Source of the DNA: Nemertoderma westbladi
Lineage: Eukaryota > Animalia > Xenacoelomorpha
Length of the DNA stretch: 53,746 nucleotides
NCBI GenBank assembly: GCA_032718475.1
Contig: JAUCBJ010007871.1
Span: forward strand, 1-53,746
Direction: 5' to 3'
Made by a program: the position numbers and the translations under genes. Of the stretch, positions 874-37,873 are shown one piece after another (the first letter of the stretch is position 1; every line of letters starts with the position of its first letter). Below the pieces are notes generated by a model. That model was not told where the DNA came from. It saw only the letters and a program-made list of their open reading frames with translations, and ran no database searches.

Positions 874-3800
874 TCACGTTGGGGAGTCCCTAGATGTTTG
901 AGGAATTAGGGAGGTGGTCGTGGGAAGAGTGTCTTGCCTTCCATAGTTTCCGGAGAGTTCTCTGTCTCTTTCCAGTAAACATAAACGACCAACTGGGCGG
1001 TTGAGTTGTTGCGTCTCAAAGATTATGCCTGGCTTCTTGAAGTTACGCCGCATGACGACGAGTTCTACCGAGCGTACTAAACCATCATCCGAGATGTGGG
1101 TCTCAATGATACGACCTGTCTGCCACCGTTTACGTGGGAGGTCTGAATCTACAATAAGCACCATATCTCCGGCGCTGACGTTTTCTTGCTGCGCAAACCA
1201 CTTAGTTCGAAGTTGTAGCGTGGGCAGATAATGTTTCTCGAAATGGTCAGCGAAACGACGGGATAGCAACTGCATAAGTTGCCAAGTTCGACGGCAGTAT
1301 TCGTCTCCGTCGGCAATCTCCGATCGTGGGAACATGGCTACAGGTTTCTTCAGTAGAAAGTGCGCGGGTGTTAGCGCTTCCAGGGAATCGGGACTCGATG
1401 AGACTGGCATAAGCAGTCTCTCGTTGAGATAGGCAGCTATTTCCTCCATTAACGTCCGCAAAAGTTCGTTGGTGAGATACGCGCGGCATGGCACTATAAA
1501 GTGAAATGCGGTCTTGACACTTCTAATTAATCTCTCCCAACTTCCTCCCCACCAAGGGGCGTCGGCGGCGTTGAAGGTCCAGCTAGACGCTGTTATCCTT
1601 AGCTGATCGTCCACTTGTCTTTGGTTCCAGTCCTTCACGTAAGCCTGGATTTCGTTGTTGGCACCAATGAAGTTCGTTCCCTTATCCGATCTCATGGTAT
1701 TACTAGTCCAGAAGCGAGCGATCTGTCGGCGTAAACTTAAGACGAAGCTGTTGGTAGATAGATCGTTCACCATATCGAGATGGATGGCTCTACAAGTCAT
1801 GCATACGAAGATGACACACCATCTCTTGACTATAGTCCTAGCACGATATACTTCAATAGGGCCAAATAAATCTACACCAGTATTAGTAAAAGGTGGTTCA
1901 TAGAAGCTTACTCGTTCCCTAGGTAATTCTGCCTCTCGCTGTGTTAAAGGCCTACTGAATGCTTTCCCACAGGGTATGCAGTTCCTAAGAACTTGGTTCA
2001 GAGCTCTACGGGGTTTATCAAAATAATAGCGAGTTCGGATTTCGCTAAGAACTCGTTCTCTACCAGCATGATAAAGTTTACTGTGAACATCTACAATCAT
2101 CTTGATTTGTACTTCAAGATTTCTAATGAGTATGGGGAATTTAGTGTCAAAGGATAATGGCGCATTGGTGAGCCTTCCTCCAACACGTATTAACCCATCT
2201 ATCATTGTGCTAGAGAAGCGATCCCTTAAGCGCATCTGCGGATTTCTCAACAACAGGAAATACTTATCGGAATCCTCATAGCATTGCAGGAGTCTCAGTA
2301 TCTGCTTATTGGTTTCTTCATGCTCCTGGTAACTAATTTTCTCCTTTAGAAACCGGTCGGATGTCTTATATTTGGGTAAATTTTTAATAACATGAACTTG
2401 CGCAGATGTCAATGGAGCGGTATCACTAATGGTCTTCGTCCTGGAGTAGTGATGATGAAAACATCGCCTTAAATATGTGACGGCTTTACAGAGCCGATTC
2501 CAGGAACTGTAGTGATGCATTGCTCTCTGCAGCAGGGGTGAGATTCCTTGCGAGACGTCGGGTATTCCAGATTTCCAATCTCTATCTCTAATTTCCACGA
2601 CAGACTTATTTGTGGCGAGGGATTGTGGATCCGAAGCATCGTTTCTGGAAGTATGTAATACAGATAGATCGATCGTCGGTTTAAATAACTTCGATTTACT
2701 CGCCCGGGTTTTAGATTTGACTTTCTCCGCTTCCTTGGCTTGTCTAATCTCCGCCGTAGTAAGGTGAGGAGGCCATTCATCCTCTTCCTTACTCAGGAAG
2801 TCGGGTCCACCCAACCAGTCTGGAGTATCTATCAGTTCCTGTGGAGTCGCTCCCCTGGAGGCGATATCGGCTGGATTAATCGTACCAGGGCAATGTCTCC
2901 ATTGATCTATCTTTGTGCGACTAAGAATAATAGCTACCCTGTTAGTAACAAAAACGCTGAACTGACAGACTTCATTGGTTATATACTCCAACACGAGTAA
3001 AGCGTCGGTCCAATAAACAGTTTTCTCCAGTGGATAGTCGATTTGTTCTGTTACGTTCCGGCCGATGGCTGTAGCGTATAAAGCCGCTTTTAACTCCGCT
3101 CGAGGAACCTTTAACTTGTTGTTAATCAATGCCTTAGAGGTAACCAAGGCGACTTTGATTCCATCCGGAGTTTCGACTCGCAGATATGCTACTATACCTA
3201 TTCCCATGTCGCTGGCGTCTCCAAACACATGGAGTTGATAGGAATAAGTAGGGAGAACATGACCAAAATATACACAGGAAATTATAAAGCTCTCGATGGC
3301 AGGTAGAGAATCTTCCCATTTCATCCATTTCTTTAACAGTTCTCCCTTAAGCGGATCGTCCCATGAGTGGTTTTCAAGCCACATTTGTTGTACTAAACTC
3401 CGAGCAATCAATATAACTGGGCTAATAAATCCCAATGGGTCGAAATAAGTGCTCAGGATACTTAAACAAATCCGTTTGGTCCGAACTGGATTATCTCGCT
3501 GTTTTAGCTGAAAAAACAGGATATCTCTTTCAGTGTCCCACTTCAAGCCAAGCGTCTTGATTTCTGGAAGATCGTCCTTTATTAAGTCTAGATCTTTCTT
3601 TCCTCGGTCTTCTACCGGTATCGCTTCCAGAAACTCACGGGAGTTGCTGGTGAATTTCGTCAGTCGAAATCCACCTCTTTTCAAACACTCTACCGTTCCT
3701 TTCGCGACATCAATGGCTTCTTCTACTGAGGGAAGGGACCTTAAATTGTCGTCAATGTATATATTACGCTTGATGTTGTCTATCACCTCTTTTGAGAAGG

Positions 3801-6800
3801 CGTCTCGGTTGTCATTCGCAGTGGTTCGCACCACGGAGCAGGCGTTGGAAGGGCTAGATATGATCCCAAAAGCCTGGATGGTCATCCAGTACTCTACCAG
3901 TTTCTGGTTGAGATCTCCTTCAGGCCACCACAGAAATCTCAGGCTGTCTCTATCTCTATCCAGCGCCTTGACTTGTAAGAACATTCCTTCTATATCGGAG
4001 GCGAACGCGATGGAATATTGTCTTAATCTTAAAAGTATTCCCAACAAAGATTGGAGTAAGTTGGGTCCTGGTAACAACTCGGAATTGAGGGATTGGCCCA
4101 TATATAGAGCAGAGCCATCGAATACGACTCGTACTTCATGGGGTTTACCGGGTTTGGGAACGTAATGATGTGTTAAGTAATACGTTCTCTCAGTTACTGG
4201 TGTTCCTTCCGGTACTCGCTCCGCGTATCCCTTTGTAATAAATTTCTTCAACTGAGTTTGGTACATTTCTTTAGCTGAAGCGTTAGCCGTAAGGCGTCGA
4301 TGTAATTGAGTGATTCTTTTCTCTGCCAAGGGTCTGTTATTTATAAATCTAGGTTCTCGTTTTCGAAATGGTAGGCCGATTTCATATCTACCTTGCTCTT
4401 TTAAAAAACGTGTAGTTGTTTCCTGGATTTGCTTGGCTCTTTCTTCTTCTATCGATAGGGCCTTATCGTATGAATTGGGCTCTACCAATTCTTGAGTAAA
4501 GAATCGTACGGCGAGTTCGTCCCGAGTTCTAGCGTTGTAGCGCTCTATCTCATCATTTAGTTCGTCATTGTAATCAATGGGTCCCGATGGGCGAATCAGT
4601 TGACATAGGTTCACCTGGTTTTTCCAAGTTTTGTTTTCTGTAAGTAGGTCGATTGTGTTCTCTTCATCGAAGAGTTGGTAGATGTCGTCATTATCTGAGG
4701 AGTATGGTGTTCCCTCAGTTAGTTCGTCCACCTCACTGATCTCCACTTCCCAATCGTTTACTTGGTATATTCGTTCTTGTGGCATTCTCTCTTCGAGAGT
4801 TTTGCGGGAAGGGCCAGTAAAGTACCAACCTACTCTAGTTCTTACCGCATAGGTTTGCAGTGGCTGCGGTTGAGCAGGCCGTTTCTCCAATGTCTCGAGC
4901 GCCTCATGCGCGTTTTGGCCGATGAGTATTTGCACTCCAGGATAATCTGTCTGGAATCGAGGTATCTTAAGATGTTGGATGCTCTCATCCTCGTCCCAAT
5001 TATAAAGGTCTGCTTGGGTAGTAGCGAAGTTCTTTATAACCACCATTTTTACCGACCTTATACCTTGTGCTCCTAATTTATCCTGGGGGGTGGACAACAC
5101 ACCTACATAGTAATCTGCCGTTAGGGTAGATTTCCAAACCTGCATAATTCCTGACATATTCAATTTAGTCCGGAATTTGGGTTGTCCAGCAAAGATATCT
5201 TCGGCTAGTTCTTGATCGATGAATGTTCCTGTGCTGCCGGAGTCAAGGAGGGCGTTCACTATGTAACTTTTGTTAGGACCGTGAACTCTTACCTGCACTA
5301 CAGGAAATTCTCTGATTCCTACGTTGGAAGTTGGAGCTTTCCAAGATGGTTGTCTGGCAAAAGTAGTTGGGGGGAACTCATTGTCGGTGTCCTTTTCATA
5401 AGTAAGTGCTCGATACACCGCGGTATTGATTAGGTAACAGGATTCGTTGGCGTCGGAGAATTCGTCAGTATAGAATCCTTCCATCTCAGACTCTTGATCA
5501 GTGTCATTTACATCACTGAATTGGACATGTAGTTCGGGCTCACTTACCTGACTCGGGTTGTCTCGTTCGAACTCACTGTGTAACAAGATGTGATGTTTCG
5601 CACCACACTTTGCACACTTTACGTCGGAGTAACAGGTTCGCCATTGGTGTCCTGATCTGAGGCAATTATAGCATAACCGCTTATCCCACATGACTGCACG
5701 TCTGTCTACAAGGGATTTCTTTAGAAATTCAGCACACGCACTCAAACGGTGGGTCCCGTCGCACAGCGCACAGTTTGGTTTGATGTTACTCACTTTACCT
5801 TGGGTAACTTGATGCACTCTCGTTCTTTCTTCGGTCTTTCTTCCGTGCATTCTGTTAGGAGACTGAGGAGGAGTCTTGGCAACCTGTTCTCTCCTATCTT
5901 TGGTTCGAGCCTTGTATTTACTTACGTCCTTTGAGGTTTTGCTAACGTAGTAAGATCGGTCAGTGTCTTTCCCACTGTCCTCTTCTTGAGAAGCTTGGCT
6001 TTCGCCGTCGTCAGTGTAACACACTGGTGTTACTCTTCTCCTAGAAACGGGTTTCTCACTTACCTTATTTTCCGATGTTTTCTCTCTGGACTGCTTGATG
6101 AGTTGTAGTTTTACTTCACCATCTAAGAAGGACATGAGATCAGCCATGGTAGGGCTTCGTCGTTGCTGCTCATTCATATACAACACTTTCTTGTCCCAGC
6201 GTGTACATACTCCACCCTTTGGTAAAGTAGAGACTACTGCTCCAATAACCATGGAACTCTGATATTCATGAGACTTACCTAACCAGTCCAATTGTCTACA
6301 AATCTCCTGAATCTCATCGGAAAACTCTATAATCCCGCTACTAAGGAAGTTTCGGGGGGCTACTAATTTTGCATACAAATACTTCGCTATGTTATCCTTG
6401 TTACCATACCTGATGTTTAATGTCTCCCAAACTTGTCTTAATCCATCTGGATGTCCAATAAACTTTAACGCCATTAACTTGGGAGGTCCTTCCAAGCACT
6501 TGATGAGGAATCTAAGTTTCTCTCCGTTAGATAGTACAGAGTTCTGTATGCTATCTTTGTAATATTCATTGAAAGGTAACCATTTCATCTCATCTCCATT
6601 GAATTTGACGATCTCTCCCACTTTGACCGCTTGGCGGGCTTCTGTTCTAGCCATCTGACGCGTAAAGCTTTCTTGGGCCATCGTGTTATTTAATATCGAA
6701 TTATCGGTATATAAATTTCTCGGATCATTATCAGGTCTATAGGGAATATCATTAACAACAGGTTTATAATCACCCTTAATAGGGTTTGCTATAGGAGTTT

Positions 6801-8985
6801 CTACTTCACTAGCAGTATAGATGCGTGTAGGCTCCACACCTTGCGCATGTAATACTTCAGACCTAACAGGTTGACACAATGTTACTGGGGGTATTGGTAT
6901 ACCCTTTTGTATATTGACTAATTTGTCGCGTTCCAGCGCGATACTTTGCTGCACTTCTTGCAATTCTACCCTACTTTCCCTTACTGTTCCCTTGAGTTGG
7001 TGGACAGTCCCTTCTAAATCTCGGATCTGCTGTGAGGAACATTCTCGGTGCTCTCTCAGCTGCCCGAGCAAGAGACCCATCTCCCGCCGTCCCTCATCAA
7101 CCCACTCGACCGCCGAAGCGGGAGTCGCCAACATAGTAGCGGGCCGACGTGGGACGACGGGAGACAAATCTTGGATTTCTCTCTCGGCGTCAAGAACCGG
7201 GACATTCTCTGGGACTGCTCCACCGGGTGCAAACAGTTTCGTACTGTGTAAAGGGAATTTGGTTGTAGGTTCGGGAAGTACAGGGGCCTCTCTCACCGAA
7301 GGGGTGTTTTCGATAACAGGCTTAACTATTTCAGGCTCATCTACTATTGTAGGGAGTCTTTTGACCTTAATAATTTGGTCTGTGGGTTCTGTACTCGCTA
7401 AGTCTGTGCTAGCTAGTTGTCTTCTAACAGCTGGGGGCAAATCAGGCAATTTGTGACGGTGAGATGTTTTTCTACGCCTGCTTAGACGAGATCTATTTCC
7501 TCCGCCTTCAGGATCGGTGGTCTCGCCTTCCTCCGATGATGTGTATCCCTGATGTTTGGGAGTAGATCGACTCATCATCTGCATTTGACTAGCAGTTAAC
7601 TGTTTATTTATGCAGTCTTGCGTCTCTTGCAGATTTTCCAACTCCAGTTGAGTAGTCTCCTCAGACGCTCTCAGTTCTGCCACTGCCACTGCCTTTGCTG
7701 CTGCTGCTTTTGCCGCTTCCGCTTCTGCCCTTGCCACTGCTGCCTTTCTTTCCGCTTCTGCTTTTGCCGCTTCCGCTTCTGCCATTGCCGCTGTTACTGC
7801 TGCTGCCTTTCGGTCCTCTATCCGTTTTTTCTTTACTTGTTCTTCTTGGACTCTAGCGAGGTGGAGTTTTTCATCAAATTTAGCTTGATTTGCAGCTAAC
7901 ATTTCCGTATCGATTGAGTCCAACACAAGCTTGGCTCCTTCACTATTGGGTCGAAGTACAGCCAGTCGTCTCCTCAACTCTTCATCCCCTAAGAAGCGTT
8001 GATAGTCTGACAGATAGATGTCTATGGCGTCTCTCGTTCGCGGTCTCTCTGCTGTCCCTTCGCTTTCCACTTGAGAAAGGGTGGCATCGGTTGGTTCTTC
8101 ACAGGTTGGTCTCTCAGACAGCTGGGATTTCCACTGGGCCGTTTCTTGTACTTTGAGACCTACCCGCTGGAACCAAGTCTTGACAGCAACCTGCAGCGGC
8201 GTGTCCTGTCTTCTTTTGGAAGTTTCCTCAAAGGCTGATAGGATTAGTCTAATGCGTAGGGTTCTTTCGCGTACTTGATATAGCAGCTCTTCCTGCTCTT
8301 GAGGTCCTTGGGGTTGTCGAAACAGTTGTTCTTCTAATCGCTCTAAGGAGCCGAAGAATCCCTGCACATATCCTGCTGCTGACCTCTTCCAAACAGCTGG
8401 ATCCATCGTATCTTTAGTCACTCCCATCCTGTGGATGTCTTCCCAAGTAGCTTCGGACAAATCTAACGGGAGTCCGGGTCCGGGAAAGTTCCATTGTGAC
8501 TCGACAATAGACATCAATTCTTCCCTGGCGTATCCCGCATAACTATCTTGGGTCGCTCGCTTACTTCTCGCCCAATCGACTTGGTGTTCCTCCACCGCAA
8601 TTAATATAGTAGTTAACACTGCGGCAGGAAGGGTGAGAAGGGGATCCGAGTAGGCTGTAGCCGCCATCTGCACTCCGCGTTCGGGGGTCAGCTCTACAGT
8701 ATCCGAACTACTGGAGCTATCGGGTTGCTGGGAACAAGTTTCTTGACTAGGATGTTGCTGCTGTTGGACAGCTGCTTCCTGGTTCCGTTTGACTTGGGCC
8801 CGAGTGCCGATGATAGACCTACGGTGTTGGATTAGCCTAGGGTCTGATACTACTACTGGAGGGATGACCTTTCTTTCAGTAGGAGGTGAGCTGAACCCCT
8901 TTCTTAATCGCTCCACACTCCTATCTGTGTCACAGATGGTTGTATCGATTAGACTGTCTGACAGGTTTTGCTGGGTGTCAGACAT
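874..8985 (-). CDS. Gag-Pol polyprotein (2703 aa) of BEL/Pao element, apparently intact
   Basis: DUF1759-like gag (KFNGDEMKWLPF...GEKLRFLIKCLEG); three Zn knuckles (CALCDGTHRLSAC, CYNCLRSGHQWRTC, CAKCGAKHHILLH); protease ALLDSGS; RT (VRVVFDGS, SDIEGMFLQV, YIDD); Pao-type RNase H (LHVFGDAS, PRAEL, WTD, NPADIASRG); integrase HHCC plus GVDLFGP/SDKGTNF/WERLIRSVK. Confidence 0.97.
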   Translation of the reverse strand: MSDTQQNLSDSLIDTTICDTDRSVERLRKGFSSPPTERKVIPPVVVSDPRLIQHRRSIIGTRAQVKRNQEAAVQQQQHPSQETCSQQPDSSSSSDTVELTPERGVQMAATAYSDPLLTLPAAVLTTILIAVEEHQVDWARSKRATQDSYAGYAREELMSIVESQWNFPGPGLPLDLSEATWEDIHRMGVTKDTMDPAVWKRSAAGYVQGFFGSLERLEEQLFRQPQGPQEQEELLYQVRERTLRIRLILSAFEETSKRRQDTPLQVAVKTWFQRVGLKVQETAQWKSQLSERPTCEEPTDATLSQVESEGTAERPRTRDAIDIYLSDYQRFLGDEELRRRLAVLRPNSEGAKLVLDSIDTEMLAANQAKFDEKLHLARVQEEQVKKKRIEDRKAAAVTAAMAEAEAAKAEAERKAAVARAEAEAAKAAAAKAVAVAELRASEETTQLELENLQETQDCINKQLTASQMQMMSRSTPKHQGYTSSEEGETTDPEGGGNRSRLSRRRKTSHRHKLPDLPPAVRRQLASTDLASTEPTDQIIKVKRLPTIVDEPEIVKPVIENTPSVREAPVLPEPTTKFPLHSTKLFAPGGAVPENVPVLDAEREIQDLSPVVPRRPATMLATPASAVEWVDEGRREMGLLLGQLREHRECSSQQIRDLEGTVHQLKGTVRESRVELQEVQQSIALERDKLVNIQKGIPIPPVTLCQPVRSEVLHAQGVEPTRIYTASEVETPIANPIKGDYKPVVNDIPYRPDNDPRNLYTDNSILNNTMAQESFTRQMARTEARQAVKVGEIVKFNGDEMKWLPFNEYYKDSIQNSVLSNGEKLRFLIKCLEGPPKLMALKFIGHPDGLRQVWETLNIRYGNKDNIAKYLYAKLVAPRNFLSSGIIEFSDEIQEICRQLDWLGKSHEYQSSMVIGAVVSTLPKGGVCTRWDKKVLYMNEQQRRSPTMADLMSFLDGEVKLQLIKQSREKTSENKVSEKPVSRRRVTPVCYTDDGESQASQEEDSGKDTDRSYYVSKTSKDVSKYKARTKDRREQVAKTPPQSPNRMHGRKTEERTRVHQVTQGKVSNIKPNCALCDGTHRLSACAEFLKKSLVDRRAVMWDKRLCYNCLRSGHQWRTCYSDVKCAKCGAKHHILLHSEFERDNPSQVSEPELHVQFSDVNDTDQESEMEGFYTDEFSDANESCYLINTAVYRALTYEKDTDNEFPPTTFARQPSWKAPTSNVGIREFPVVQVRVHGPNKSYIVNALLDSGSTGTFIDQELAEDIFAGQPKFRTKLNMSGIMQVWKSTLTADYYVGVLSTPQDKLGAQGIRSVKMVVIKNFATTQADLYNWDEDESIQHLKIPRFQTDYPGVQILIGQNAHEALETLEKRPAQPQPLQTYAVRTRVGWYFTGPSRKTLEERMPQERIYQVNDWEVEISEVDELTEGTPYSSDNDDIYQLFDEENTIDLLTENKTWKNQVNLCQLIRPSGPIDYNDELNDEIERYNARTRDELAVRFFTQELVEPNSYDKALSIEEERAKQIQETTTRFLKEQGRYEIGLPFRKREPRFINNRPLAEKRITQLHRRLTANASAKEMYQTQLKKFITKGYAERVPEGTPVTERTYYLTHHYVPKPGKPHEVRVVFDGSALYMGQSLNSELLPGPNLLQSLLGILLRLRQYSIAFASDIEGMFLQVKALDRDRDSLRFLWWPEGDLNQKLVEYWMTIQAFGIISSPSNACSVVRTTANDNRDAFSKEVIDNIKRNIYIDDNLRSLPSVEEAIDVAKGTVECLKRGGFRLTKFTSNSREFLEAIPVEDRGKKDLDLIKDDLPEIKTLGLKWDTERDILFFQLKQRDNPVRTKRICLSILSTYFDPLGFISPVILIARSLVQQMWLENHSWDDPLKGELLKKWMKWEDSLPAIESFIISCVYFGHVLPTYSYQLHVFGDASDMGIGIVAYLRVETPDGIKVALVTSKALINNKLKVPRAELKAALYATAIGRNVTEQIDYPLEKTVYWTDALLVLEYITNEVCQFSVFVTNRVAIILSRTKIDQWRHCPGTINPADIASRGATPQELIDTPDWLGGPDFLSKEEDEWPPHLTTAEIRQAKEAEKVKSKTRASKSKLFKPTIDLSVLHTSRNDASDPQSLATNKSVVEIRDRDWKSGIPDVSQGISPLLQRAMHHYSSWNRLCKAVTYLRRCFHHHYSRTKTISDTAPLTSAQVHVIKNLPKYKTSDRFLKEKISYQEHEETNKQILRLLQCYEDSDKYFLLLRNPQMRLRDRFSSTMIDGLIRVGGRLTNAPLSFDTKFPILIRNLEVQIKMIVDVHSKLYHAGRERVLSEIRTRYYFDKPRRALNQVLRNCIPCGKAFSRPLTQREAELPRERVSFYEPPFTNTGVDLFGPIEVYRARTIVKRWCVIFVCMTCRAIHLDMVNDLSTNSFVLSLRRQIARFWTSNTMRSDKGTNFIGANNEIQAYVKDWNQRQVDDQLRITASSWTFNAADAPWWGGSWERLIRSVKTAFHFIVPCRAYLTNELLRTLMEEIAAYLNERLLMPVSSSPDSLEALTPAHFLLKKPVAMFPRSEIADGDEYCRRTWQLMQLLSRRFADHFEKHYLPTLQLRTKWFAQQENVSAGDMVLIVDSDLPRKRWQTGRIIETHISDDGLVRSVELVVMRRNFKKPGIIFETQQLNRPVGRLCLLERDRELSGNYGRQDTLPTTTSLIPQTSRDSPT

Positions 8986-10330
8986 GTTTAGCTATACAGT
9001 TGAATGCTTACTGCTATAATTACAGTTAAAGCAAGTCTAGTAATTCAGTATGACCGTTGGCCTAGTACCGGTAATTTATTACAGTATATTAGAATACCGG
9101 TATACACTTATAATATATAGAAGTATTGTAAACTAGGTTTGTCACAGAGTACCGGTATATAATTTTAGCACAAATATATATAAATATATAATAGGCCTAT
9201 CGTGAATACCGGTATACAGCTGACACTTATAGTATATAAGTATAATTCTGGACTAGAATTAATTACAGAATACCGGTATAATTTCAGCCTAAATTTATAG
9301 AAATAAAGATAATAGGCCTATCGTAAATACCGGTATATCAATTATTTAAATAATTGAATTTCTGAATTTTAAAGGTTACTTAGTTACTTTAACTTACTTT
9401 ATTACTGTTATTTAAGCAGTAGTCCAACTGATATTGAGACCTAGTTGTTGTATGGCAGGCCTACTATTTATAAATCGTTTGAGTTGATTTATAATATATA
9501 TATACCCGTTTAAAATGTGTTTTGTCAATATTTGATATAAATGTTATTATTTCTGGGGGAGTCACTACACAGAAGCTGTGCGCTCTCAGTGAAGTGCTAC
9601 TTATTGGACACTAAAACAGATAATTCTAATTTACCTAAGTTACTTAATACTACCAATTACGTACGATACGGGTGAGATTAATTCTCTAATTAAAACATAA
9701 CAAAATATTACGTATGAAATTTTAGGGTAATTTTACAAGAAGTCTACAAACCAGTCTAACAAAGGGTTAGAACTTCTGGTTATTACAACGGACAGGGTAC
9801 TACGGTATTTGAAAATAATAAGTAGTAGTAAATATGTTGCGCTGTCCAGATAGGAAAAATACCACCGTCTGACGACCTATAGCCGTATCGCTATAGGTAC
9901 TACGTTATGTATCACGGAGTGTTCCTACCTGGAAGTTAATTACCGCGGACTACCAGATCCAACGTGCCTATTAACCACTTTACAACACAATACACTGCCT
10001 ACACACTAATTACTTTCGGAAAGCACTGTACACCAAACCCTAAATTAGGTACAAGTACTTATTAAAACAGATAACTAGCAGTTAAATATACTTGAACAGT
10101 TAAAAGAACCACGGCATCTGCTGGAGTGACCAGAGCACAAAGTCACCAGTCTTTACCTACGCCAAGCAGCCCGTGTAGTACCGGGGTTAATTTAACTATA
10201 ACGGTATGTGTAACAAGCACAATTACTGTAGGAATAAACTTGGGGACATGAATGTTGCGAATAATCGCATAAACTCTGAATAATAAATATTACGCTACCC
10301 GTACAGAATACTCAAACAAAATACAAACCA

Positions 10331-10855
10331 AACGCTTGCAGACTACCACCAAGCCTAAATAAACTACAGTATGTGCAGATTCCGAAATGGTTAGTTAGTA
10401 TGCGTTCTAACACGGTAGTACGACTTATTCTTTAAGAGGGGATTGACCTTACAGCTCTGGCTGCCCCAACTTACTAACTGGCACTTTATCAGACAAACTC
10501 TACACACGCAGCAATCTCTTCAGACCTAATAATAGCTAGACAACAATCCAGCCTACAAAATATCTGAGTAATAACTATTACGGTACCTGAACAGACCACA
10601 CAAACAAACACAGACTAAAAACGCTGGCAGACTACTATCAAGCCTAAATAAACTACAGTATGTGCAGATTCCAAAATGGTTAGTTAGTATGCGTTCTAAC
10701 ACGGTAGTACGACTTATTCTTTAAGAGGGGATTGACCTTACAGCTCTGGCTGCCCCAACTTACTAACTGGCACTTTATCGGACAAACTCCACACACGCCA
10801 CAATCTCTCCAGACCCAACAACAGTCAGACAACAGTCCAGCCTACAATTATCTGA
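10331..10855. repeat. ~289-bp tandem duplication in the copy 1 leader
   Basis: AACGCT(T/G)GCAGACTAC...CCAGCCTACAA starts at 10331 and again at 10620; single copy in BEL copy 2 (~37284-37515). Confidence 0.9.
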
Positions 10856-11132
10856 ACAATCTGAGCAGACTTACACGTCTTCAGCTCAATATTAACTTAC
10901 ATGTAAATAAAACCGACAGAAATAAGTAAAATCTCAATAAAAAACCAGGGCGGCCGTTCCCTGATTAAGTACTAAGACCTACCGGTATACAATAATCAAA
11001 ATCGAATAATACTAATGTACTTATACTGGAAGTACCGGTTAGGACAGTTGGGCCTACAGACCTACAGCAGTACCGATTCAGGTTTACCGGTCGACCGGTA
11101 CTTTCAACTTTATTGCTTACTGCAATAAAGAA

Positions 11133-11144
11133 TATAACTGTTAT
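11133..11144 (-). promoter_or_regulatory. Primer-binding-site position of copy 1 (non-tRNA, complementary to own LTR)
   Basis: Minus strand ATAACAGTTATA directly follows the LTR end; no TGG start; reverse complement of LTR 11816-11827. Confidence 0.75.
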
Positions 11145-12252
11145 TGTACGCCCTTTTGAAGACCTTTAGCAGTTTAATACCAATAAACACAACATTAGCC
11201 GAAGCCAGCCTAGTGCGCGTCCATTCACCCGCTGGATATACCCGGGAGACTGGATTCGGAGGGCTTAGATTGTTATTGCAGTGTAAGCTTACTGTATTAT
11301 TCGATTGATCGTTAATAAATAATTTCTGACCAATATTATTCACTTTCGGGAAATATTAACAGTTCCTTTAGGACGTGGCGCTCTACCTAGGTAAACAGAG
11401 ATATGACTTATACTAAACACAACGGTAAGTCGGTAAGGCTTATGATTCACGTATGAGGCGCATTCTTTAGGAAATGCTTAGTTATCAGCCACAATCATGC
11501 ACACTACCGGTACCACACAATACTGCACAATAATCTGCCGATCGTCAATGAATTTTATCATATATAAAGAGAACAGCAATTGACTCATGTAGTGCCTATC
11601 AAATAGCATTAAACTCACTACAAACCACGATAATATAAGTCGCAATCGCTATATGTAACCTGTCTCTCTAACCTGTAGTGTATCAAGAAAATTGGGAAAT
11701 TTGGGTTCTTTATAGATGTTCTCCAAATAATAATATTCAACCAACTGATACAAATAATGACAACAGTAAATAGCAGTATAATAATGTATGTTGCAGTGAT
11801 ATAAGACTGCTGCTGATAACAGTTATACGCTCTATAATCTAAGCCTACTAATGTTTCTTCTAAAGTCTGAAACGAATTGACTCTAGAGCCGGTGTTCTTG
11901 GCCTAGATAGAAACAACACAACAGTATCACAAAAAACAGTAAGACTGAACACTCCTAGCACGATCTGTAGAATATCTCCACATCGACAGTAAAAATCGCC
12001 CTGATTGGCTGTTAAGCTAAACAAAGAACCATGTGTCCAATGGCCGTTTCCATGCCAGCAACCAGCTGTTAGATGTCGTAATCTGAATCATCAAGGCTAC
12101 ACTGTGCTAGAGTATTTGACGCATTGCGGGTTTTATGCCTTGCCATGTCCGCCAAAGCACACATATAGAAGAATGACTTTTATGTCCGTTAAAACACCTA
12201 CAACGGTACTTTGCAGGCGAGGGGACTGATGATATCCGCAAAAGCTTTTACA
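11145..12252 (-). repeat. 5' LTR of BEL copy 1 (1108 bp)
   Basis: TG...CA ends (TGTACG...GCTTTTACA); colinear with copy 2 LTRs, with the same GCAAAAGCTTTTACA terminus; CCAAT-type box (CTGATTGG) at ~12001. Confidence 0.9.
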
Positions 12253-12255
12253 TTA

Positions 12256-13119
12256 CCCAATCGAAGCCTCATAAGGGCCGGTTATTTGTACGCATATCCC
12301 CTAATGCGCTCAGTAAGGTTCAAACAACATATTAATATGAAAATAAAGTATCTGCAAAGAAAAGAACCCAATACTATATAATTTGACCTTATTAAAAAAT
12401 TTGCACTTTTGCACCGCACACTTATTTGTACAAATGCACTTTAGCAGATCGTAATGGTGGCTCTTATTTAACAAACTTATGTTTATCCTCTACCGATCTA
12501 CGATGGTGTATGATCAAGTGTCAGTCACTAAAAGTGTCAAAAATCCAATTTAATAAATCTGGATTTGCGATTTTGGACCATATTCATGGAAATTTTTAAG
12601 TCACTTTATAGACATAAAAAGTTAAACAAATGTTACATTTTTCAACTTTGACGGACATTTTCAGAAAAAAGGCGTGGTAATCTTATTTGAAAAAAAAAAC
12701 GAATTCACTAATTAATCCCTTCTATCGTATCCTGGCGTCGGCTAAGCAATAACCTAGGGTTTTTTCGAGCCACTGTAGAGCGCCTTTCAAAAACATTTTA
12801 AAATTGTCGAAAAAATGACGGATTTTTGTCCGCCGTGTCCGTCGATGGGTTAGATTTAATAATGTTAGAGTTGTTAATATCTTAGAATTCCGAGCCGCTC
12901 CCCTGGTGAGAAAATAAAAAAATTTGGTCTGTTCCTTCATCGAAAAGTCCCCCAGAATCCCAAGTTAACCTATATAGTTAGCGATGGCCTGCGGCTTTAG
13001 GAGCGGCCGCGGTATTCACCTCCCTCATAGCGGCGGTGTTGCGTCAAATGGAGAAATATTTATCCCACCGAGAGAAAGCGGCCCCAATATTAGATTATTA
13101 CAACAACATATCCATTGGG
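12256..13119. mobile_element. Non-autonomous TIR DNA transposon (CCC...GGG ends, TA flanks; possibly CACTA/EnSpm-like), internally deleted copy
   Basis: Ends TA|CCCAATCGA ... TCCATTGGG|TA; near-identical to both ends of the longer copy at 13917-16090 but lacking ~1.35 kb of its middle. Superfamily assignment is tentative. Confidence 0.65.
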
Positions 13120-13916
13120 TAAGAAAGTGGAGGAGAGCCAGCCCGTCTCTTAATTTTTTACTTTATATTACGCGATCAATTTTCACTCATCTCGTCATGA
13201 ACCCAACATGTATGTAACCTTTTGTTAAATTTGTTGGCTATGCGTTTGCGGTTGTTTGGGCGGAGTGTGGTAGGCCTACACTTTTCACACTTAAATATTT
13301 TGGTTGTGAAATGTTACAGGGCATAGCGATCTGAGATATTTCATTTATATTTTATTATGAGAGGAAGAAGAACATACAACGTTATTTACTATGTAACAAA
13401 ATAATTGTTTTCGGGTTTAACTTGGAAGCCTCCCCAAATAGTTGATATACAATTATATTTAAAATTATTTCCATGGTCATGGTCATTCACCCGTCTTTAG
13501 TTAGAAATTTGTTTGCATGAAAGACAGTTTAGTTTAGTTTTTACTGATTTATTATCTCTTATCTGACTGGGGTAATAATAAAGGATAGGATAAATGGAAG
13601 CAAAGTGTGACAGTAACAAATATTTCCCCGTCACCCTAGCATGTCTTAAGTATATGATATATCAAAGGGGGAAGTTTGGATTCACTGCATAAATGCAGTT
13701 CACCAAACTTCCCCCGAATGCACACTGTAACTTCCCCCTTCCCCCAAATATCCACTGTTGAATTAATTTGAAGCGATATAATAAGTACAAAATTGTGCGA
13801 GTTTTTAATTGTGTGGTCCAATTGTTATTTGATTTCTATTTATTATTTAAAGTGCATTTAATATCACACTGGTTTTTAGAATATTATACTATACAACCTT
13901 ATGTTTTATTAATTTA

Positions 13917-16090
13917 CCCAATCGAAGCCTCATAAGGGCCGGTTATTTGTACGCATATCCCCTAAAGCGCTCAGTAAGGTTCAAACAACATATGAAAATG
14001 AAAATAAAGTATCTGCAAAGAAAATAACCCAATACTATATAATTTGACCTTATTAAAAAATTTGCACTTTTGCACACTTATTTGTACAAATGCACTTTAG
14101 CAGATCGTAATGGTGGCTCTTATTTAACAAACTTATGTTTATCCTCTACCGATCTACGATGGTGTATGATCAAGTGTCAGTCGCTAAAAGTGTCAAAAAT
14201 CCAATTTAATAAATCTGGATTTGCGATTTTGGACCATATTCATGGACATTTTAAGTCACTTTATAGACATAAAAAGTTAAACAAATGTTACGATTATAGT
14301 TAGAAATCATTCCAAACTACATTTTAATCCAAAAAATAACATTCTACGATGAATATAACTGGAAATAATAGTGTTTGAAATATCGAAAAAATGTTCACTA
14401 TTTAAGTGCATTTTGCACTAAGTGCACATAAGTTTTTTCCCAAGTTTTATCCTATTTCACACACTACAATCTATCCTCTATCCAATGAAAAACGTTTCAG
14501 ATTAAACGGCCCAGTAGAACCGAAGTTATTGATGTTTTAAAATAGTCACTCGAAAATTTCAAATTCTCTTGGTCACATAGTCTAGTGGTTATCAATCACG
14601 TTAATGAAACCTAAGTTCGCGGGTTCGAAATCCAATATTGACCTGACCATTCTTAATTTTTTTGCATAAAAAATTATTTTTATTTTTTCACTAAAATCGC
14701 TCTAACTTCGGTTCTGGTGGTCCAAATTCAATAAAATTGGTATATTCTTTGCCGTAATTTTTTTCATTAATCTTTTGAGAAGGGGTTATTTTTGGCCCTA
14801 AAAAAATTAAAAAAAGGGCCAAAATAACGCGATATTTATCGACCCTTAAAATTCGTAATTTTAATTATATATGTTAAGATAAAAGATAGCGGAGTTAATT
14901 TGATACTTTTTACAGGTACTTTTGGCGCAATACGCTAAATTATAATGGAATAGCGATTTGTTAAAAAAAAAAATTTTCGTCCCTTTTTATAAATATTATA
15001 TTTCACACGATCGCCTGCCGCTCCAGTTTTATAATACCTCCGGCGCTGTGATTAACGCTGTTAGATAGATAATTTAACACACTATAAGTCTGTGTAAACA
15101 AATCTCCCGTAAGTTAAGTAGTTTTCGAGCTAGACGATTTCCCGCGAAGCAAGTTTGAAGCGCGAAATTATAATTTTGGCCCTCATTTTTTTAATATCAT
15201 CCTTGGAGCAAAACCGATATATTTGAATTCCCCGTATGGATATTGACTGTATAGAATGTACCTTAACCAACTAAAGTTAAAAATAAAAAATTATTCGATA
15301 AAAACTACTTTACAAATTCTGGCCCTTTTTGGCCCCTATTGCCGACATATTTTTTGTACCCCCATTCGATAGGAACGTAGCCCCAATGGTCTTCTACGAG
15401 TTTCATAAAAGAATTAGTGGATTCCTACCCGCGTTGTCGAATTAAACATTTCGGAAATAAGTGTTCCAAAAAAGACGGACAAAAACGTACAAATTTACAG
15501 CCCCTTTTTCCACCCGAAATTTTAATAAATATCTTACGCCCATTCGATACGAAGGTAGTACCACTCTTCCCCTTTCCAACCGCGTTACTTTCGTCCCCGT
15601 ACGATTAATATTAGCCGAGTTATAGCAGATCCCGCAAAGTCATTTTGTCCGTTTTTTCAACTTTGACGGACATTTTCGGAAAAAAAGCGTGGTAATCTTT
15701 TTTGAAGAAAAAAACGAATTCACTAATTAATCCCTTCTATCGTATCCCGGCGTCGGCTAAGCAATAACCTAGGGTTTTTTCGAGCCACTGTAGAGCGCCT
15801 TTCAAAAAAATTTTAAAATTGTCGAAAAAATGACGGTTTTTTGTCCGCCTTGTCCGTCGAAGGGTTAGATTTAATAATGTTAGAGTTGCTAATATCTTAG
15901 AATTCCGAGCCGCTCCCCTGGTGAGAAAATAAAAAAATTTGGTCAGTTCCTTCATCGAAAAGTCCCCCAGAATCCCAAGTTAACCTATATAGTTAGCGAT
16001 GGCCTGCGGCTTTAGGAGCGGCCGCGGTATTCACCTCCCTCATAGCGGCCGCGGCGGTGTTGCGTCAAATGGAGAAATATTTATCCCACC
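13917..16090. mobile_element. Longer copy of the same TIR element, right end lost at a LINE junction
   Basis: Starts TA|CCCAATCGAAGCC as at 12256; shared sequence stops at ...TATCCCACC (16090), where a LINE 3' fragment begins. Confidence 0.75.
14571..14643 (+). other. tRNA-like / Pol III A-box and B-box segment inside the TIR element
   Basis: 73 nt; GGTCA...TGACC termini; A-box TAGTCTAGTGG; B-box GGTTCGAAATCC; T-run shortly downstream; poor anticodon arm. Confidence 0.5.
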
Positions 16091-16782
16091 TAGGTACCAC
16101 CTAACTCTAGATGACTTTTCTGAATCTGGACTACTTAACTTAGATAGTAGAGTTAAGCAGCTACGCCTTAACCATGTGCATAAAGTGTATAATGGTAAAT
16201 GTCCTAATTACAGAGTACGCGATACACACTCTTACAGTACCAGAGCTAGTGCTTCAAACTTCTACCTCCCGAATTGTAAATCCTTCGAATCTGATACTTT
16301 CTTTTTTAACGGCATAAAAAATTGGAACGCTCTGCCTAATGAATTTAAAAACCTATATAATCCACATTCTTTTAAATCTGCAGTTAAATCTCACCTCCGT
16401 GTGCAATGTAAAAATAGGTACAATAGTCCTACGGAAAGTTATTAGTTTATTAATAATTATTTACTATTTATACTGTAATTTCGTTTTATATTAAATTGTT
16501 CTGTACATTACATTTTTATCGTTGAGTCGGACATTGTCACGCTCTCGGTAAAGTTGTACATGTACATAGTGTAATTACGTTTTATATTGGTTTTAGGTTA
16601 GCGTAGTGTAATATTGTATTTGTAACCAAGTAACATAAAGGACCCCCTTGGAAATAAGCTGCAAAGCTTTAGGGGTAATCCTATATGTTATGTTGGACAA
16701 TACCTTTATACCGGTACATTGTTTGGTGTATTTGTTATTGTTTTTACATAATGTATAAATAAATCTATCTATCTATCTATCT
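16091..16782 (+). mobile_element. 3' fragment of a CR1/L2-group (Crack/Daphne-like) LINE
   Basis: ORF2 C-terminal motifs HSYSTR and TFFFNGIKNWNALP...SFKSAVKSHL; 3' UTR with GGACCCCC...GGGGTAATCC stem, AATAAA and (CTAT)n tail. Confidence 0.75.
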
Positions 16783-21400: not shown

Positions 21401-22036
21401 ACAGTAAGTCAAAAACCCTCGTATGTAATGTAACTGTGACTACATTAATTTATGTAAGTAAATGATAATGATAACAAGTGTAAAAGTTAGTTATACAGTC
21501 CCAATCCCAATAAGCTTAGTTGCTCTGACTGATTGTCGGCTCCCTTTCTTTATTACCCGGAGCTGAGTCGGGCCTTGCAGTTGTAGTAGAGACCAGAATA
21601 CACAAGAGAATAAATTAAACATAAATGAACAGGTTACAGTTTTATTTTTGAGAGAAATCATCTGTTATTATTTGCGTCAAAATTCCCCTGGAGAGGGATG
21701 AATTATTATTGCGTCCAGTTCCACCCCCCCCCCCCCCCCCCCCCCGTCCCTAACTGTATTTATGAGAGCATTTATATTATAGCGTACTAAACAGCTAAAT
21801 AAAGAAAAATCTGTATAAAGTACTTTTCTCATATTTTAAAGAAATTTTACGAATTAAGTATATGAACTTGTTATTTTTATTACCATTCGAATAGAATAAA
21901 AGTAAATAATATATTAATTATCTTTAATAATTAATTTATCTTTTTTGTAAAATATATAATATCTTTATTCAATATCATTAATTTAATTATTTATTAACAA
22001 TAAGATACTCAATTTGATGTACATCTACATTACAAC

Positions 22037-23344
22037 ATGTCACAGGGTGCAGATTCAGTTATATTATGTGATGAAAAAACTATGATTAATCAGAATAGTC
22101 ATCGAAAGGGCTGGAGACTTTACATGCTGGTGGCCATGTTGCTGATGTATCAAATGATACCAGGTTGGTGTCAGAATCTACTGGAAACATTCTTTCCAAT
22201 TGTTGTAGAAGAGCGTGGTTGGTCGAAGACTCTGATTGGTGCATTATTGGCAATGTTTGCTATGGTCAGACTTATAATATACATTTGTTGCCCTCATTCT
22301 ATCAACAATTGGGGAACTCGTATCTCTTTGGGCCTATTTGGCATTATTGGTGCAGTCTCCCAATTGGCATTTGGGTTTGTAGAATATATTCCAAACAACA
22401 GCAATGGATTATATATATTCGCTTGTTTTTCTCTGCGCATAATTGAGGCAATTGGACTCAACATCAGTTTTATGTATTCATACAGTCTATTGATGGAATT
22501 GTGGCCTGCACAAAGAACTTTATTAGCCAGTTTATCAATTGTTTGTAGCACTGTGGGATTCACGGTTTCACCAGTTTTTGGCTCATCCATTTTCGCTTCA
22601 TTGGGTTTTGAGTTCCCATTTATAATATCGGGTTTGATGTTTCTAATTATCGTCATTTACTGCTGGATGGAGTCGCCACGTTATATTTACGACAGATCTG
22701 AATCGAAAGACAGACCAACTTATATTGGGCTTCTGAGGAATCCAGCTATTTCACTTATATTTATTTTAATTATATCTTCCAGAATACTCACATCCTTTAT
22801 CATTGCGAACTATGCTGCTTACATTCACCACAACTATAATGTCAACCAGTACAATATTGGACGTATCTATATGATATTTCCAGGACTTTATGCTACTACT
22901 AGTCTAATAATATCATTAATGATGAATAAATTGAAGACTATCTTACCAACTGTATTTGGTGCAGTGTTACTAACAGTGTCAATGCAACTAATAGGTCCCA
23001 CAGAGCTACTGGGTTTACCTCATTATCTCGCCATATCTATCACTGGATGTGCTCTCCTTGGATTTGGGTCTGGATTATTTCACACTCCTGCCCTGGAAAC
23101 ACAAACACAACTGGCTGTTAATGTTTGTGAGTATCGTGATAATGTTGATACAAGAACACTTCTCCAACAAATGTATAAAATTGCGCTCTCTATTGGAGGT
23201 ATTATAGGTCCTGTTCTTGGTGGATTCTTCAATGATTCCTTTGGTATGGAACTTGCTTGCTCGCTTCTCAGTTTGTTTGGGTTACCATTTATATTCGCTC
23301 TGGTTGCTGTGTTCGCATTTAGATGTCGGATCATTGAGATGTGA
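22037..23344 (+). CDS. MFS transporter, SLC18B1-like (435 aa, single coding exon), paralog A
   Basis: About 12 hydrophobic segments; FFPIVVEERG, LRIIEAIG, GFEFPF, LIGP and IGGIIGPVLGG motifs typical of SLC18B1-like MFS proteins. Confidence 0.85.
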   Translation: MSQGADSVILCDEKTMINQNSHRKGWRLYMLVAMLLMYQMIPGWCQNLLETFFPIVVEERGWSKTLIGALLAMFAMVRLIIYICCPHSINNWGTRISLGLFGIIGAVSQLAFGFVEYIPNNSNGLYIFACFSLRIIEAIGLNISFMYSYSLLMELWPAQRTLLASLSIVCSTVGFTVSPVFGSSIFASLGFEFPFIISGLMFLIIVIYCWMESPRYIYDRSESKDRPTYIGLLRNPAISLIFILIISSRILTSFIIANYAAYIHHNYNVNQYNIGRIYMIFPGLYATTSLIISLMMNKLKTILPTVFGAVLLTVSMQLIGPTELLGLPHYLAISITGCALLGFGSGLFHTPALETQTQLAVNVCEYRDNVDTRTLLQQMYKIALSIGGIIGPVLGGFFNDSFGMELACSLLSLFGLPFIFALVAVFAFRCRIIEM

Positions 23345-23772: not shown

Positions 23773-24942
23773 TGTTCGCGCTTTTAGACCTTTAGCAGTT
23801 TAACCTGCCAAATTTAGGTGTCTTCTAGGTTATAAATCGACTTTAGCCTATAACAAGTATTTGATACACATAAGTTACATTAGCCGAAGCCAGCCTATGC
23901 GCGATCATTCACCCACGGTTAAGGGAGACTGGATTCGGATGCTCTGACCTTATTGCGGTGTAGGCCTACTGTACTATTCGATTGATCGTTAATATATAAT
24001 CTCTGACAAATATTATTCACTTTCGGGAAATATTAACAGTTCCTTTAGGACGTGGCGCTCTAAGTATGTAAACAGAGTTATGACTTACACTAAACACAAC
24101 AGGATGGCTAATGATCTTCGTATAAAGCGCATTCTTTAGGAAATGCTTTGTTATCTGTCACACTCATGCACACTACCTCACACTGCTGCACACTGATCTG
24201 CCGACCTTCACTAAATTTGATCATATATAAGGAGAACAGCAAATGACACATGTAGGGTCTATGAAATAGCATTCAATTCACTCCAAAACCACTATAATGT
24301 AAGTCGCAATTGCTATATGTAACCGGTCTCTCTAACCTTGAGTATATCAAGAAGATTGGGGTTTTATGATTATTCCTCGATATTCTCCAAATATAACAAC
24401 ATATCAATCAACTTCTAACAATTAATAACCGACAGTAAATAGCAGTAAAATAATGCGGTGAAAGGTATGTATAGCATTTGAGTCTGACCAGTTCGATAAC
24501 AGTTATACGTTTCTATGATCAAAGCCGTTCTAATGTTTTGGCTAAAGTCTGAAACACAGAATAATTCCACAGCCGATGTTCTGGGCTCAGGAAAAAAGGT
24601 AAACAAAGACCATAATGCATTGCGCGATTTCCCGGAGGCTTCTGTGCAAATAAAATGAAAATCGCTCTGATTGGTCGAGCCGAACAAAGAACAAAGAAAA
24701 GCTATACGTGGACATATCAGCTGATAGATGTCGTCATCTGAACTACACTGTATCAAGAGTATTTTGGCGTATTGCGGCATAAAATCGCTAGTTATGTCCG
24801 CTAAAGTACACATACAGAAAAATGGCTTTTTATGTCCAATAAAACACCTACACAGTAAGAAAACGGCTTTTTATGTCCGTTAAAACACCTAAAGAGTACT
24901 TTGCGGGGAAAATGACTAGCTAGATCCGTAAAAGCTTTTACA
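23773..24942 (-). repeat. 3' LTR of BEL copy 2
   Basis: Same length as 37874-39043; about 16 substitutions by manual count. Confidence 0.97.
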
Positions 24943-24950
24943 CCGCTCCC
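24943..24950 (-). promoter_or_regulatory. Short polypurine tract (GGGAGCGG) abutting the 3' LTR
   Basis: Minus strand CTGGGAGCGG|TGTAAAAG at the expected PPT position. Confidence 0.65.
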
Positions 24951-25020
24951 AGAAAATGGGATTTAATTCTATAAAATATAAAAAATCACAGTTTCTAAAA
25001 TATAAAAATACTTTAAACAG

Positions 25021-26570
25021 TTAGTCTTTCTTGCGCGGACGGCGTTTACGCAGTTTTTTGAGGCTAGCAAGAGTCCTTTTCTCTTTGGGGGGAGCCACTT
25101 TACTAGGAGGGATATAACTCCTAGGTGAAGGGTACAATACAATTGCATCGGAAGGTTTAGGATTATGGTCGCTGTATCCGCCGGTCGAGGTACCTGGTTG
25201 ATCGATATCAACCTCAGTGGAGCGAGGTCGAACAACCTTGAGAGCGCATTTTAAGACAGCAGCTGTTATTGGTCCCTGACGGGTCGTTTGCACATAAGCG
25301 GTAGGTAGACCGTGTGTAGTGAGAAATTTCCTCGGTTAGATGGTTCTTTCCAACTCGCGTTCTCGGGCTCTATCGGAATCGATATGCTTCTCCTCGAGCT
25401 GATTTTCCTCCGCTTGTCGTTGGAAGCATTCGTTTAAAACTCTTTTAGAGAGTAGGGTCACTCAAGTTCGATATCTTCTTAGAGATTCTGGATTTCCTGA
25501 TCGAACTGAGATAAAGCTAATTCGTTTACTGCTTGGACTTGCTGCTGCAATTTACGTTTCTCTAAACAATTGTAGGTTCCCTTTCTGATCTTTTGACGAA
25601 TAGTGTCCAACGCGTTTCATACAACTCTCTCCTCCTCCTCGGTGACAGGTTGTATCGGGTTAAACCGGGACGATGATACGATTGAATGGCGATATTAGAT
25701 GTCCGCGTCCCAATCCGGCTAGGTGAGATGGGCGAATATCTAGGGAGCCCACAACCGGAGTGCCACCGACTAACTGTTCGGGTAACACTAGATCTTTGAA
25801 CAGTGAGTACAGTTCGGGAGGATCCGTGATACTATTAGGATCAAGAGTCTGAGGTCTCACTAGGAAGTGAGGAGGTCTGTCCGAGTATTCCGGAACTCTG
25901 ATCATAGGTTTATTTAAGGATCGTTTGAATCGAACGAGCGTAGGTGATACATTGAACAAGTTTCGCTCGAAACTCCCGTAAATATAGCGAGTAAAACCGT
26001 GTTTAAAGCAACGTCTCCGCGGATGTTTGTCTTTCCGTTTGTTGGTTGGGTCTTGGGCATTCATCGCAATAATACCAAAGACGCACGTCTTGTGGGGGAA
26101 ACGCGGGTGATATTTATTCGGTTTTACAATGTTTCTCTCAAGAATTCCAAATATACGTTGGAGTTATCGCGTTTATCCGGTTCTTTAACGTATTTTCTTT
26201 CGAGTCGATTTCGAATAGAATTTTCGCATTCGATTTTCAGTTTATCGTTCCGACTCCGCTGGGTAGGATATTTAAATAGTACCATTTCCCTTTCATTGTC
26301 GACATAGTCCGTATCGTGTAAATCGATAGGATGGCCAGTAGTTAAGAAGTCCATATACGTACCATTACGATGCGTATAGCGAGCGGTGAATTTTCTATAG
26401 TCCAATTCATGCGTGAGCTGTTCCTTTGACATTGGCGGTTCGATATAACGACCATCGTCCTCCGTAGTAGGTTGACTAGCGTCGCCGCTTATCAAACTAT
26501 CAACAAACGCTTGTAGTGGTAGGGTATATCGCTCCCTGATACCAAGATCATCTTCTATCAACTCAGTCAT
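25021..26570 (-). pseudogene. Decayed extra ORF in the env position of BEL copy 2 (roughly 500 aa if repaired), unknown function
   Basis: Same-strand ORF pieces 26570-26124, 26064-25660 and 25293-25021 in a GC-richer block between AT-rich UTR and PPT; ends in a basic tail KKLRKRRPRKKD. Confidence 0.6.
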
Positions 26571-28275
26571 AGCTGCTATATGAGTTTATCAATATTATAA
26601 TAAGTTTATGATTAGGCTAGCGGGTGTCGCTGCCTACCCCTCACGGCCCCCGGACAGCGCAAGATCCTCAGCGCCGATGTACTTTTGCCGATGTGCCTAT
26701 CGCCAACATAGTAGCTGCACAACAACCACAACAACCAGCGCGAGTCACTCCACTGTCCGTCCCAAGGGCTAAGATTTACTTCAGGTTATTACTGCAGAGT
26801 TAGGGCTACTTTCACAATTGCGACTCGCTACTGTAACACACTTTAGTAGTAACATTCACCTATAAACGCACAAATTCCACACAACTGTCACAAACCGCAC
26901 ACATTCGGGCCATTTGTCCGTTAGTCAAGTGCCTTCCAGAATGCCACGTTATTATTGGGTATCCTTGGATACTAGCAGTGTGCTATTTATTCCTTATGCT
27001 ATTCAATGGGGCAAGCTTTATTGTTCTTTTAACTCACTTCTAATTCTAGCGTGGTTGTTGCCATGGTGACATTATGGAAAGCTAGCAGTAGAATTAGGGT
27101 AATTCTCATGCATACAGATCTGGGATGCTATTTAATAGTAATTCTTTAATTGTCAATATTCCTCTTTATACATGATTTTATGAATTTTATCGGCTATTGA
27201 CTATATATTGGAGATTCTCGCACACTAATATACTTAATAGGGTGAATCTCCGCTCCCATGATCTATTAATTAATGGAATTTTGGGAATGTTATAAATTGT
27301 ATAAAAATGACAATTTATCAAATTCATTAAAAGAGATGAATTTAAATTTATTCCCATAAATTTTATTATTTAATATTAAAATAGACACAATTTTATTCCA
27401 GAACATGTCTGGGGACTGGGATCCTTGATTCTAGGAAATTTGTCTTTTTAAGAGTATCGGTAAGTGCTACGATATCTTAATAGACTAGAATTTTAAAGGA
27501 TCTAAAATTTTACAGATTTTAATTTATAGATTTTCTAGAGTTAACTTGTAAGTAGTTACTCTATTGTATTTATTTGACAGATTTTACAAATATTAATAGT
27601 TAATATTTAAGATGGGCACCGGTTTATTCCAGAACATGTCTGCGGACGTTAACCACTGATTCTAGAATTTTGTCTTTCAAGTATATCGGTGGGTGCCGCG
27701 ATATCTTAATCGACTAGAATTACAGATGGTCAAAGGGTTTAACAGATTTATTTTGCATTTTACGCTACTGTTAAAGGGACATCACGCTACTATATGTATT
27801 ATTTAATATACGGTATGAGAGCAATATCGCAAGAAGCAATGTCAGTGAGAAGAGGCAAGTCGTTTCCAAGGTCTACCCAGAGCTTGGTTTAGCCGAGACA
27901 CGAGGATCTGAATTTTGCATTCCTAATACTCTACTTACCAATAATACTTGAATATAGTAGGAGCTTTATTGTACTTTAATAAGTACGGATATTTCATCTT
28001 ACTGTAGTCACGTATTTATAATATGATACGGACAGTAAGGAAAGAGAAAAAGAATTATTTCTCGCCGTCGCACTAAATATATAATATATAAGTAATTAAG
28101 TAATAAACACTAATATATATTGCACTAATCTACTAGATAATCGCTAAAATAACATTCTACTAAATAAAATTAAAGAAAGCGAATATAATAAAATTACATA
28201 ACGATACATACCTAAATATAAAAATAAAAAAGACAGATATAAAATAATATAGTCACACACCCACTCCAGACGCTG

Positions 28276-37854: not shown

Positions 37855-37873
37855 AGAAACGTATAACTGTTAT
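37855..37873 (-). promoter_or_regulatory. Primer-binding-site position of copy 2 (19-nt complement of own LTR)
   Basis: Plus strand AGAAACGTATAACTGTTAT abuts the LTR and is the exact reverse complement of ATAACAGTTATACGTTTCT at 38597-38615. Confidence 0.8.

Follow-up and report, generated by a model that had tools for sequence, protein, structure and literature searches.

A giant BEL/Pao retrotransposon of Nemertoderma westbladi probably primes its reverse transcription with its own RNA. The element lacks a primer-binding site of the tRNA type and the sequence at the corresponding position pairs with a segment of its own LTR, which makes a self-encoded primer likely. This complementarity has an exact register, and it is accompanied by an edge of conservation at the last base of the LTR segment, by a second, adjacent duplex and by a parallel signature in related elements.

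The window (the whole stretch of 53,746 nt analysed, contig JAUCBJ010007871.1) carries on its minus strand two copies of one LTR family, and all the features of these elements described below lie on that strand. Copy 1 has an intact gag-pol frame of 2705 codons (874-8991), whose polyprotein comprises DUF1759, three Cys-His knuckles, a DSG protease, a YIDD reverse transcriptase, a DAS RNase H (Peptidase_A17), an H2C2 integrase and DUF5641; of these, DUF1759, Peptidase_A17, H2C2 and DUF5641 score above the cut-off. With this copy on the minus strand, 11145-12252 (1108 bp, TG...CA) represents its 5' LTR, and the position of the primer site is taken by the 12-mer at 11133-11144; the 3' LTR falls outside the window. 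Copy 2 is a complete element of 15,271 bp (23773-39043) with a 5-bp target duplication (CCACC), a 5' LTR of 1170 bp (37874-39043), a 3' LTR (23773-24942) and a short polypurine tract abutting the latter (24943-24950). Its two LTRs differ at 16 of 1170 positions (1.4%) and its gag-pol is broken by four stops and two frame changes; such near-identical LTRs despite a broken gag-pol could reflect mobilisation in trans or assembly errors. Between the two copies, LTR identity is 72% (797/1108).

The assignment to BEL/Pao (Belpaoviridae) rests on the polyprotein. The domain order is Gag-PR-RT-RH-IN with Pao-type domains, and the TG...CA LTRs, the polypurine tract and the short target duplication are those expected of the group. 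The single gag-pol frame and the LTRs of 1.1-1.2 kb also resemble those of Semotivirus. The nearest named proteins come from sea urchins, corals, a hemichordate and a goby, at about 40% identity (about 43% over RT-RNase H). The ICTV description of the family includes an 18-nt site for tRNA-Arg or tRNA-Gly and genomes of 4.2-10 kb (PMC8742986), whereas the element of the window has no such site and copy 2 spans 15,271 bp. Since TGG is absent both here and in 14 of 15 related families (see below), the tRNA trait is not general. In a quick tree of the relatives, the element forms a long, unplaced branch, and no relatives were found in viral contigs.

The site and its partner are contiguous sequences. 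TATAACTGTTAT (11133-11144) adjoins the LTR of copy 1, whose TGT begins at 11145, and ATAACAGTTATA lies inside that LTR at 11816-11827 (LTR nt 426-437); weaker pairing may extend the predicted primer up to 11835. This 12/12 complementarity had been pointed out in an earlier note on the same DNA and was recovered here at both sites. In copy 2 the match is longer, as the primer-binding site (37855-37873) is the exact 19-nt complement of LTR nt 429-447 (38597-38615). In both cases the offset from the LTR end is 0, and the base that immediately follows the LTR is paired to the final base of the LTR segment. TGG does not occur in the first 60 nt after the LTR in either copy, no tRNA gene was found in the 53.7-kb window, and an Rfam search of 9000-12400 gave nothing above threshold and two matches far below it. 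Among Markov-simulated LTRs, a match of at least 12 nt was obtained in 4 of 20,000 for copy 1 and in 17 of 20,000 for copy 2, and the longest match in these 40,000 trials was 13 nt, compared with the 19 observed in copy 2. Out of 9,988 internal 12-mers, LTR complements were found for four in copy 1 and for eight in copy 2, all eight inside the primer site. The duplex of copy 1 has a predicted energy of about -18.5 to -18.6 kcal/mol (next best LTR site, -13.6), and in each LTR no other site pairs as well with the primer site, the margin being 5 kcal/mol in copy 1 and 14 kcal/mol in copy 2.

The 11-nt core, ATAAC-N-GTTAT, is a near-palindrome, so that a direct repeat would also score 10/12. The central base is nevertheless T in all three primer-site copies and A in all three LTR copies, which is the arrangement required for pairing, and the motif was found nowhere else in the 53.7 kb. 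The third primer-site copy touches on a peculiarity of the copy 2 leader (37764-37904), where the primer site and its hairpin are duplicated about 68 bp in, with a second core at 37794-37804.

The conservation of the motif between the two copies, on which the earlier note had based its case for self-priming, is less informative. The flanking LTR bases do differ between copies as quoted there and the 12-mer is indeed invariant, but its length was underestimated: the invariant LTR run covers 15 nt (11815-11829), and copy 2 matches over 19. The claim that retention in two diverged subfamilies argues against chance is weak by itself, because the same invariance is seen for 88 of 1096 LTR 12-mers (for 10 of 300 in the divergent central part of the LTRs), invariant runs of at least 10 nt number 23 and reach 26 nt, and two copies with 72% identical LTRs share ancestry. 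As the core is both invariant and near-palindromic, no covariation can be read from it. Pairs 13-20 of copy 1 seem to contain compensatory changes, but this reading was rejected: the LTR segment of copy 1 pairs better with the site of copy 2 (-21.1 kcal/mol) than with its own (about -18.5), and the extended pairs of copy 1 correspond to a register slip from a 2-nt length difference, without compensation. Self-priming stays the best explanation, on grounds other than the invariance between two copies.

A stronger signal comes from the family at large, which is very abundant in public contigs. The material compared consists of contigs assembled from sequencing runs; those of two studies were aligned to positions 38560-38660 (X1, n = 133, possibly the source sample of the contig; X3, n = 84), a further study, X5, having yielded 2 contigs only. 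Summed depth rises from 1,624 at 38588-91 to 60,356 at 38596-99 in X1 and from 900 to 47,072 at the same positions in X3, a 37- to 52-fold jump where the 3' end of the predicted primer begins; depth is flat within each contig in these data, and differences near contig ends are unlisted. The listed contig pieces begin at 38595-38597, and their left-hand loose ends are dissimilar (agreement 0.61-0.62). Since the right-hand side is maintained to within 5 nt of the edge, an edge effect is unlikely. A cut of the Tf1 type would fall at position 38597, whose base is the partner of the first base after the LTR. No substitution at 2% or more is listed over the 38560-38660 stretch, and conservation over the 50 nt upstream equals that of the motif itself. 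The signal is therefore a one-sided edge: the expectation that conservation would single out the 12-mer is borne out at its 3' end and fails upstream. With copy 1 as the reference, the drop is about five-fold in 47-nt bins (63,683 vs 303,614), and there are no variants within either 12-mer among the best 40 of 232 variant entries, a subset too small to be informative. Speculatively, the variable sequence just past the cut site could result from relaxed selection or from strand-transfer errors.

In both copies, the stretch of leader immediately 3' of the primer duplex is predicted to pair with a homologous LTR site. In copy 2, LTR positions 38053-38066 are predicted to pair with the leader at 37840-37853 (13/14 bp, -21.4 kcal/mol, 0 of 150 shuffles as strong). 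In copy 1, the LTR arm lies at 11273-11288 and the leader arm at 11115-11128, 17-30 nt after the LTR (-16.1 kcal/mol, 1 of 150 shuffles as strong); the leader window of copy 1 was set after the result for copy 2, a first window having missed the duplex (19 of 60 shuffles). The two copies show one two-sided change in this duplex, U-A versus C-G. The second duplex crosses the primer duplex, an arrangement that nested folding cannot display. It was absent from the 14 relatives with a self-complementary site, in which arms of the pretzel type were found in 0/14 and 2/14. A third duplex is less clear: a possible partner of the last 10 nt of the LTR lies at 11215-11223 in copy 1 (-8.3 kcal/mol, not the best site), and its equivalent in copy 2 reaches -12.1 (10 of 150 shuffles). 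When the LTR end was paired to the leader, or to the 40 nt that follow the primer, the result did not exceed that of shuffles. RNA folding, which the earlier note had proposed as a check, places the best LTR site at the motif in both copies, but the pairing of copy 1 is sensitive to the RNA start, as it collapses when the start is set 20-40 nt upstream (mean probability 0.06 and 0.0); for copy 2, the predicted pairing with the 12-mer alone is 0.0. The leader arm of copy 1 also overlaps a competing 9-bp leader hairpin (11108-11130). An AATAAA hexamer is buried in this hairpin, whose 5' arm is also used by the LTR-leader duplex; the two could act as an RNA switch.

Related BEL families were examined for the same geometry. 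The relatives are the 79 loci provided by the best 80 of 534 confirmed hits: 35 lacked a terminal repeat, 17 carried repeats that could not be used, assembly overlaps among them, the LTR end was defined in 17 (15 families once two duplicates were dropped) and 10 had a whole 5' LTR with an undefined end. Four loci required manual trimming of the LTR end, and the match could begin at an offset of up to 6 nt. A complement of 10-15 nt to the family's own LTR was found in 14 of the 15 families, with letters that differ by family, as opposed to 3 of 202 cross pairs; the count includes kin (L003/L013/L059 and L063/L065). The remaining family, L050, had no own-LTR complement. In 12 families (L003, L006, L010, L013, L014, L022, L030, L038, L039, L059, L062 and L072) the complement is formed solely across a canonical GT-AG junction, with introns of 71-186 nt, and it is contiguous in L063 and L065, whose LTRs are about 200 nt or shorter. 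A screen of other BEL families for this geometry had been proposed as a check in the earlier note. In the loci with an undefined LTR end, a junction match was found in 8 of 10 against 1 of 88 cross pairs, three of the eight repeating families already counted. A complement that requires a GT-AG junction implies pairing as RNA, and in view of these relatives the primer may often be put together by host splicing. L063 and L065 differ from each other by a matched T/A change in primer and site. Moreover, TGG is absent from the first 10 nt of the primer site in 14 of the 15 families, and a poly(A) hexamer follows the segment by 7-129 nt in 13 of 14. In the quick tree L063 and L065 are nested among junction-type families; this placement fits candidates for intron loss, a history that it does not extend to the element of the window. 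The LTRs of L006 and L030 apparently end in TA rather than CA.

A splice-built primer was rejected for the window element, since its match is contiguous and neither LTR has a canonical donor upstream. In both copies, acceptor-like AG sites without a donor do lie a short way upstream of the predicted primer (11831-11872), and they could be an intron relic or a trans-splice site. Taken together, the chances seem about even that a broad BEL/Pao clade of aquatic animals dispenses with tRNA priming, most members splicing an LTR intron to make the self-primer and some (the window element, L063 and L065) encoding it contiguously, the family of the window having converged on a Tf1-like crossed fold with a 700-nt loop.

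Under self-priming, transcription would start at the LTR segment or shortly upstream of it, and the segment would fold back onto the primer site over a loop of about 670-720 nt. The RNA would then be cut after the segment, a step for which Tf1 uses its own RNase H, and the 3' end so created would prime minus-strand DNA, while the second duplex would hold the primer site in a crossed fold similar to the Tf1 pretzel. An RNase H motif is present in the copy 1 frame, and the conservation edge lies at the predicted cut, which bears on cleavage only indirectly. Tf1, Tf2 and Tj1, of the Tf1/sushi group of Ty3/gypsy chromoviruses, likewise have no tRNA site and carry beside the CA of the LTR a site that pairs with an LTR segment (PMC7175516), the very arrangement observed here. 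Pairing in Tf1 involves the first 11 bases, and RNase H cleavage falls between bases 11 and 12 (PMC7175516); three duplexes are described, two of which join sequence adjacent to the primer site to LTR sequence downstream of the primer (PMC10085805), and the second duplex of the window element matches one of these arms. In contrast to Tf1, the polyprotein is of the BEL/Pao type and not that of a Ty3/gypsy chromovirus, with no chromodomain match, and the duplex involves 12-20 nt over a loop of about 700 nt rather than the first 11 nt, so the likeness to the 11-nt Tf1 primer drawn in the earlier note could not be established. The element is no member of the Tf1/sushi group and would only work like one.

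The main alternative keeps an element-encoded primer that is not the 5' end of the genomic RNA: the primer would come from the 3'-LTR segment or from a short LTR transcript, and the main RNA would start downstream. A conserved TATA-like box does exist at 11559-11566, about 260 nt downstream of the predicted primer (LTR nt 687/714 in the two copies), and transcription from it would place the segment in U3; a conserved CCAAT box lies at 12001-12008, about 180 nt upstream of the predicted primer. The same segment is present in the 3' LTR (24496-24507 in copy 2), the fold-back model requires a very long loop, and the complementarity and the conservation edge would be equally well accounted for. 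Yet the segment of the relatives lies just upstream of the poly(A) hexamer, the geometry of a primer in a 5' R region, and Tf2 is described as having a downstream start alongside a priming-competent upstream start (PMC5341516), which makes this alternative unlikely. In the window element itself, AATAAA is absent from the sense strand of the LTR in both copies, with only variants 102-128 nt after the segment.

It is very unlikely that the pairing is structural (circularisation, dimerisation or packaging) and that an unrecognised host RNA such as a tRNA fragment is the primer. The near-palindromic core recalls the hairpin sites of fungal GalEa (PMC5445492), and half-tRNA priming requires no TGG (PMC6317226), but a duplex that occupies the site from exactly the first base after the LTR onward would leave no room for a host primer, and the sites of the relatives vary freely while each fits its own LTR, which a fixed host RNA would forbid. 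Most improbable of all is that the two motifs duplicate a palindromic site for DNA binding, or that they form an inverted repeat which arose by chance and passed to both copies by descent. The near-palindrome does stand at the edge of a conserved, promoter-like block, and the copies share ancestry; nonetheless, the 19-nt match runs into non-palindromic sequence, its length is well above the simulated maximum, the central base and the uniqueness of the motif in the window favor pairing, and the relatives would be left unexplained.

Self-priming has been reported for the Tf1/sushi group and predicted for Tcn1 (gypsy) and TAR (copia) (PMC6317226, PMC4600332). The window element shows the feature used for the latter, a stretch of 10 nt or more that begins 0-5 nt past the LTR and is complementary to an LTR region (PMC6317226), although it belongs to a different superfamily and host kingdom. 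GalEa also has a palindromic sequence in place of the tRNA site, but its partner is downstream and no LTR complement was found for it (PMC5445492), while the partner is in the LTR here. How BEL/Pao elements replicate is described as little understood, with a tRNA primer assumed (PMC8742986). The literature searched, mostly open-access and without Repbase reports, yielded no report of self-priming or splice-junction priming in BEL/Pao, and a search by term found no mention of a primer site or tRNA in three BEL-related papers (PMC554778, PMC3118150, PMC6238403). If the window element does prime itself, a mechanism proven only for Tf1 would reach the third LTR superfamily, the primer sites not found in many BEL elements would be explained, and an RNA cut and the end of strong-stop DNA would be expected at 11816/38597. 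Cer7 of C. elegans has reportedly been proposed to encode its own tRNA-like primer, a proposal for which confirmation was not found.

Some other features of the window deserve mention. The region 6600-11130 of copy 1 encodes about 790 residues before the recognisable Gag domain, including an Ala/Glu-rich stretch, and comprises a 2.1-kb leader with tandem repeats rich in TACCGGTA. Two single-frame MFS genes similar to SLC18B1 flank copy 2 (22004-23344 and 41895-43238); they are 84% identical. For the neighbouring MFS gene, one search gave no hits and another gave eukaryotic SLC18B1-like clusters. A second repeat at 12253-13072 is 96-97% identical to 13914-14291 plus 15653-16093, this other copy being interrupted by about 1.36 kb. 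Lastly, a weak GIY-YIG match below the cut-off (49499-50044) lies between 167-bp inverted repeats (47289-50335) and is possibly a Penelope-like remnant.
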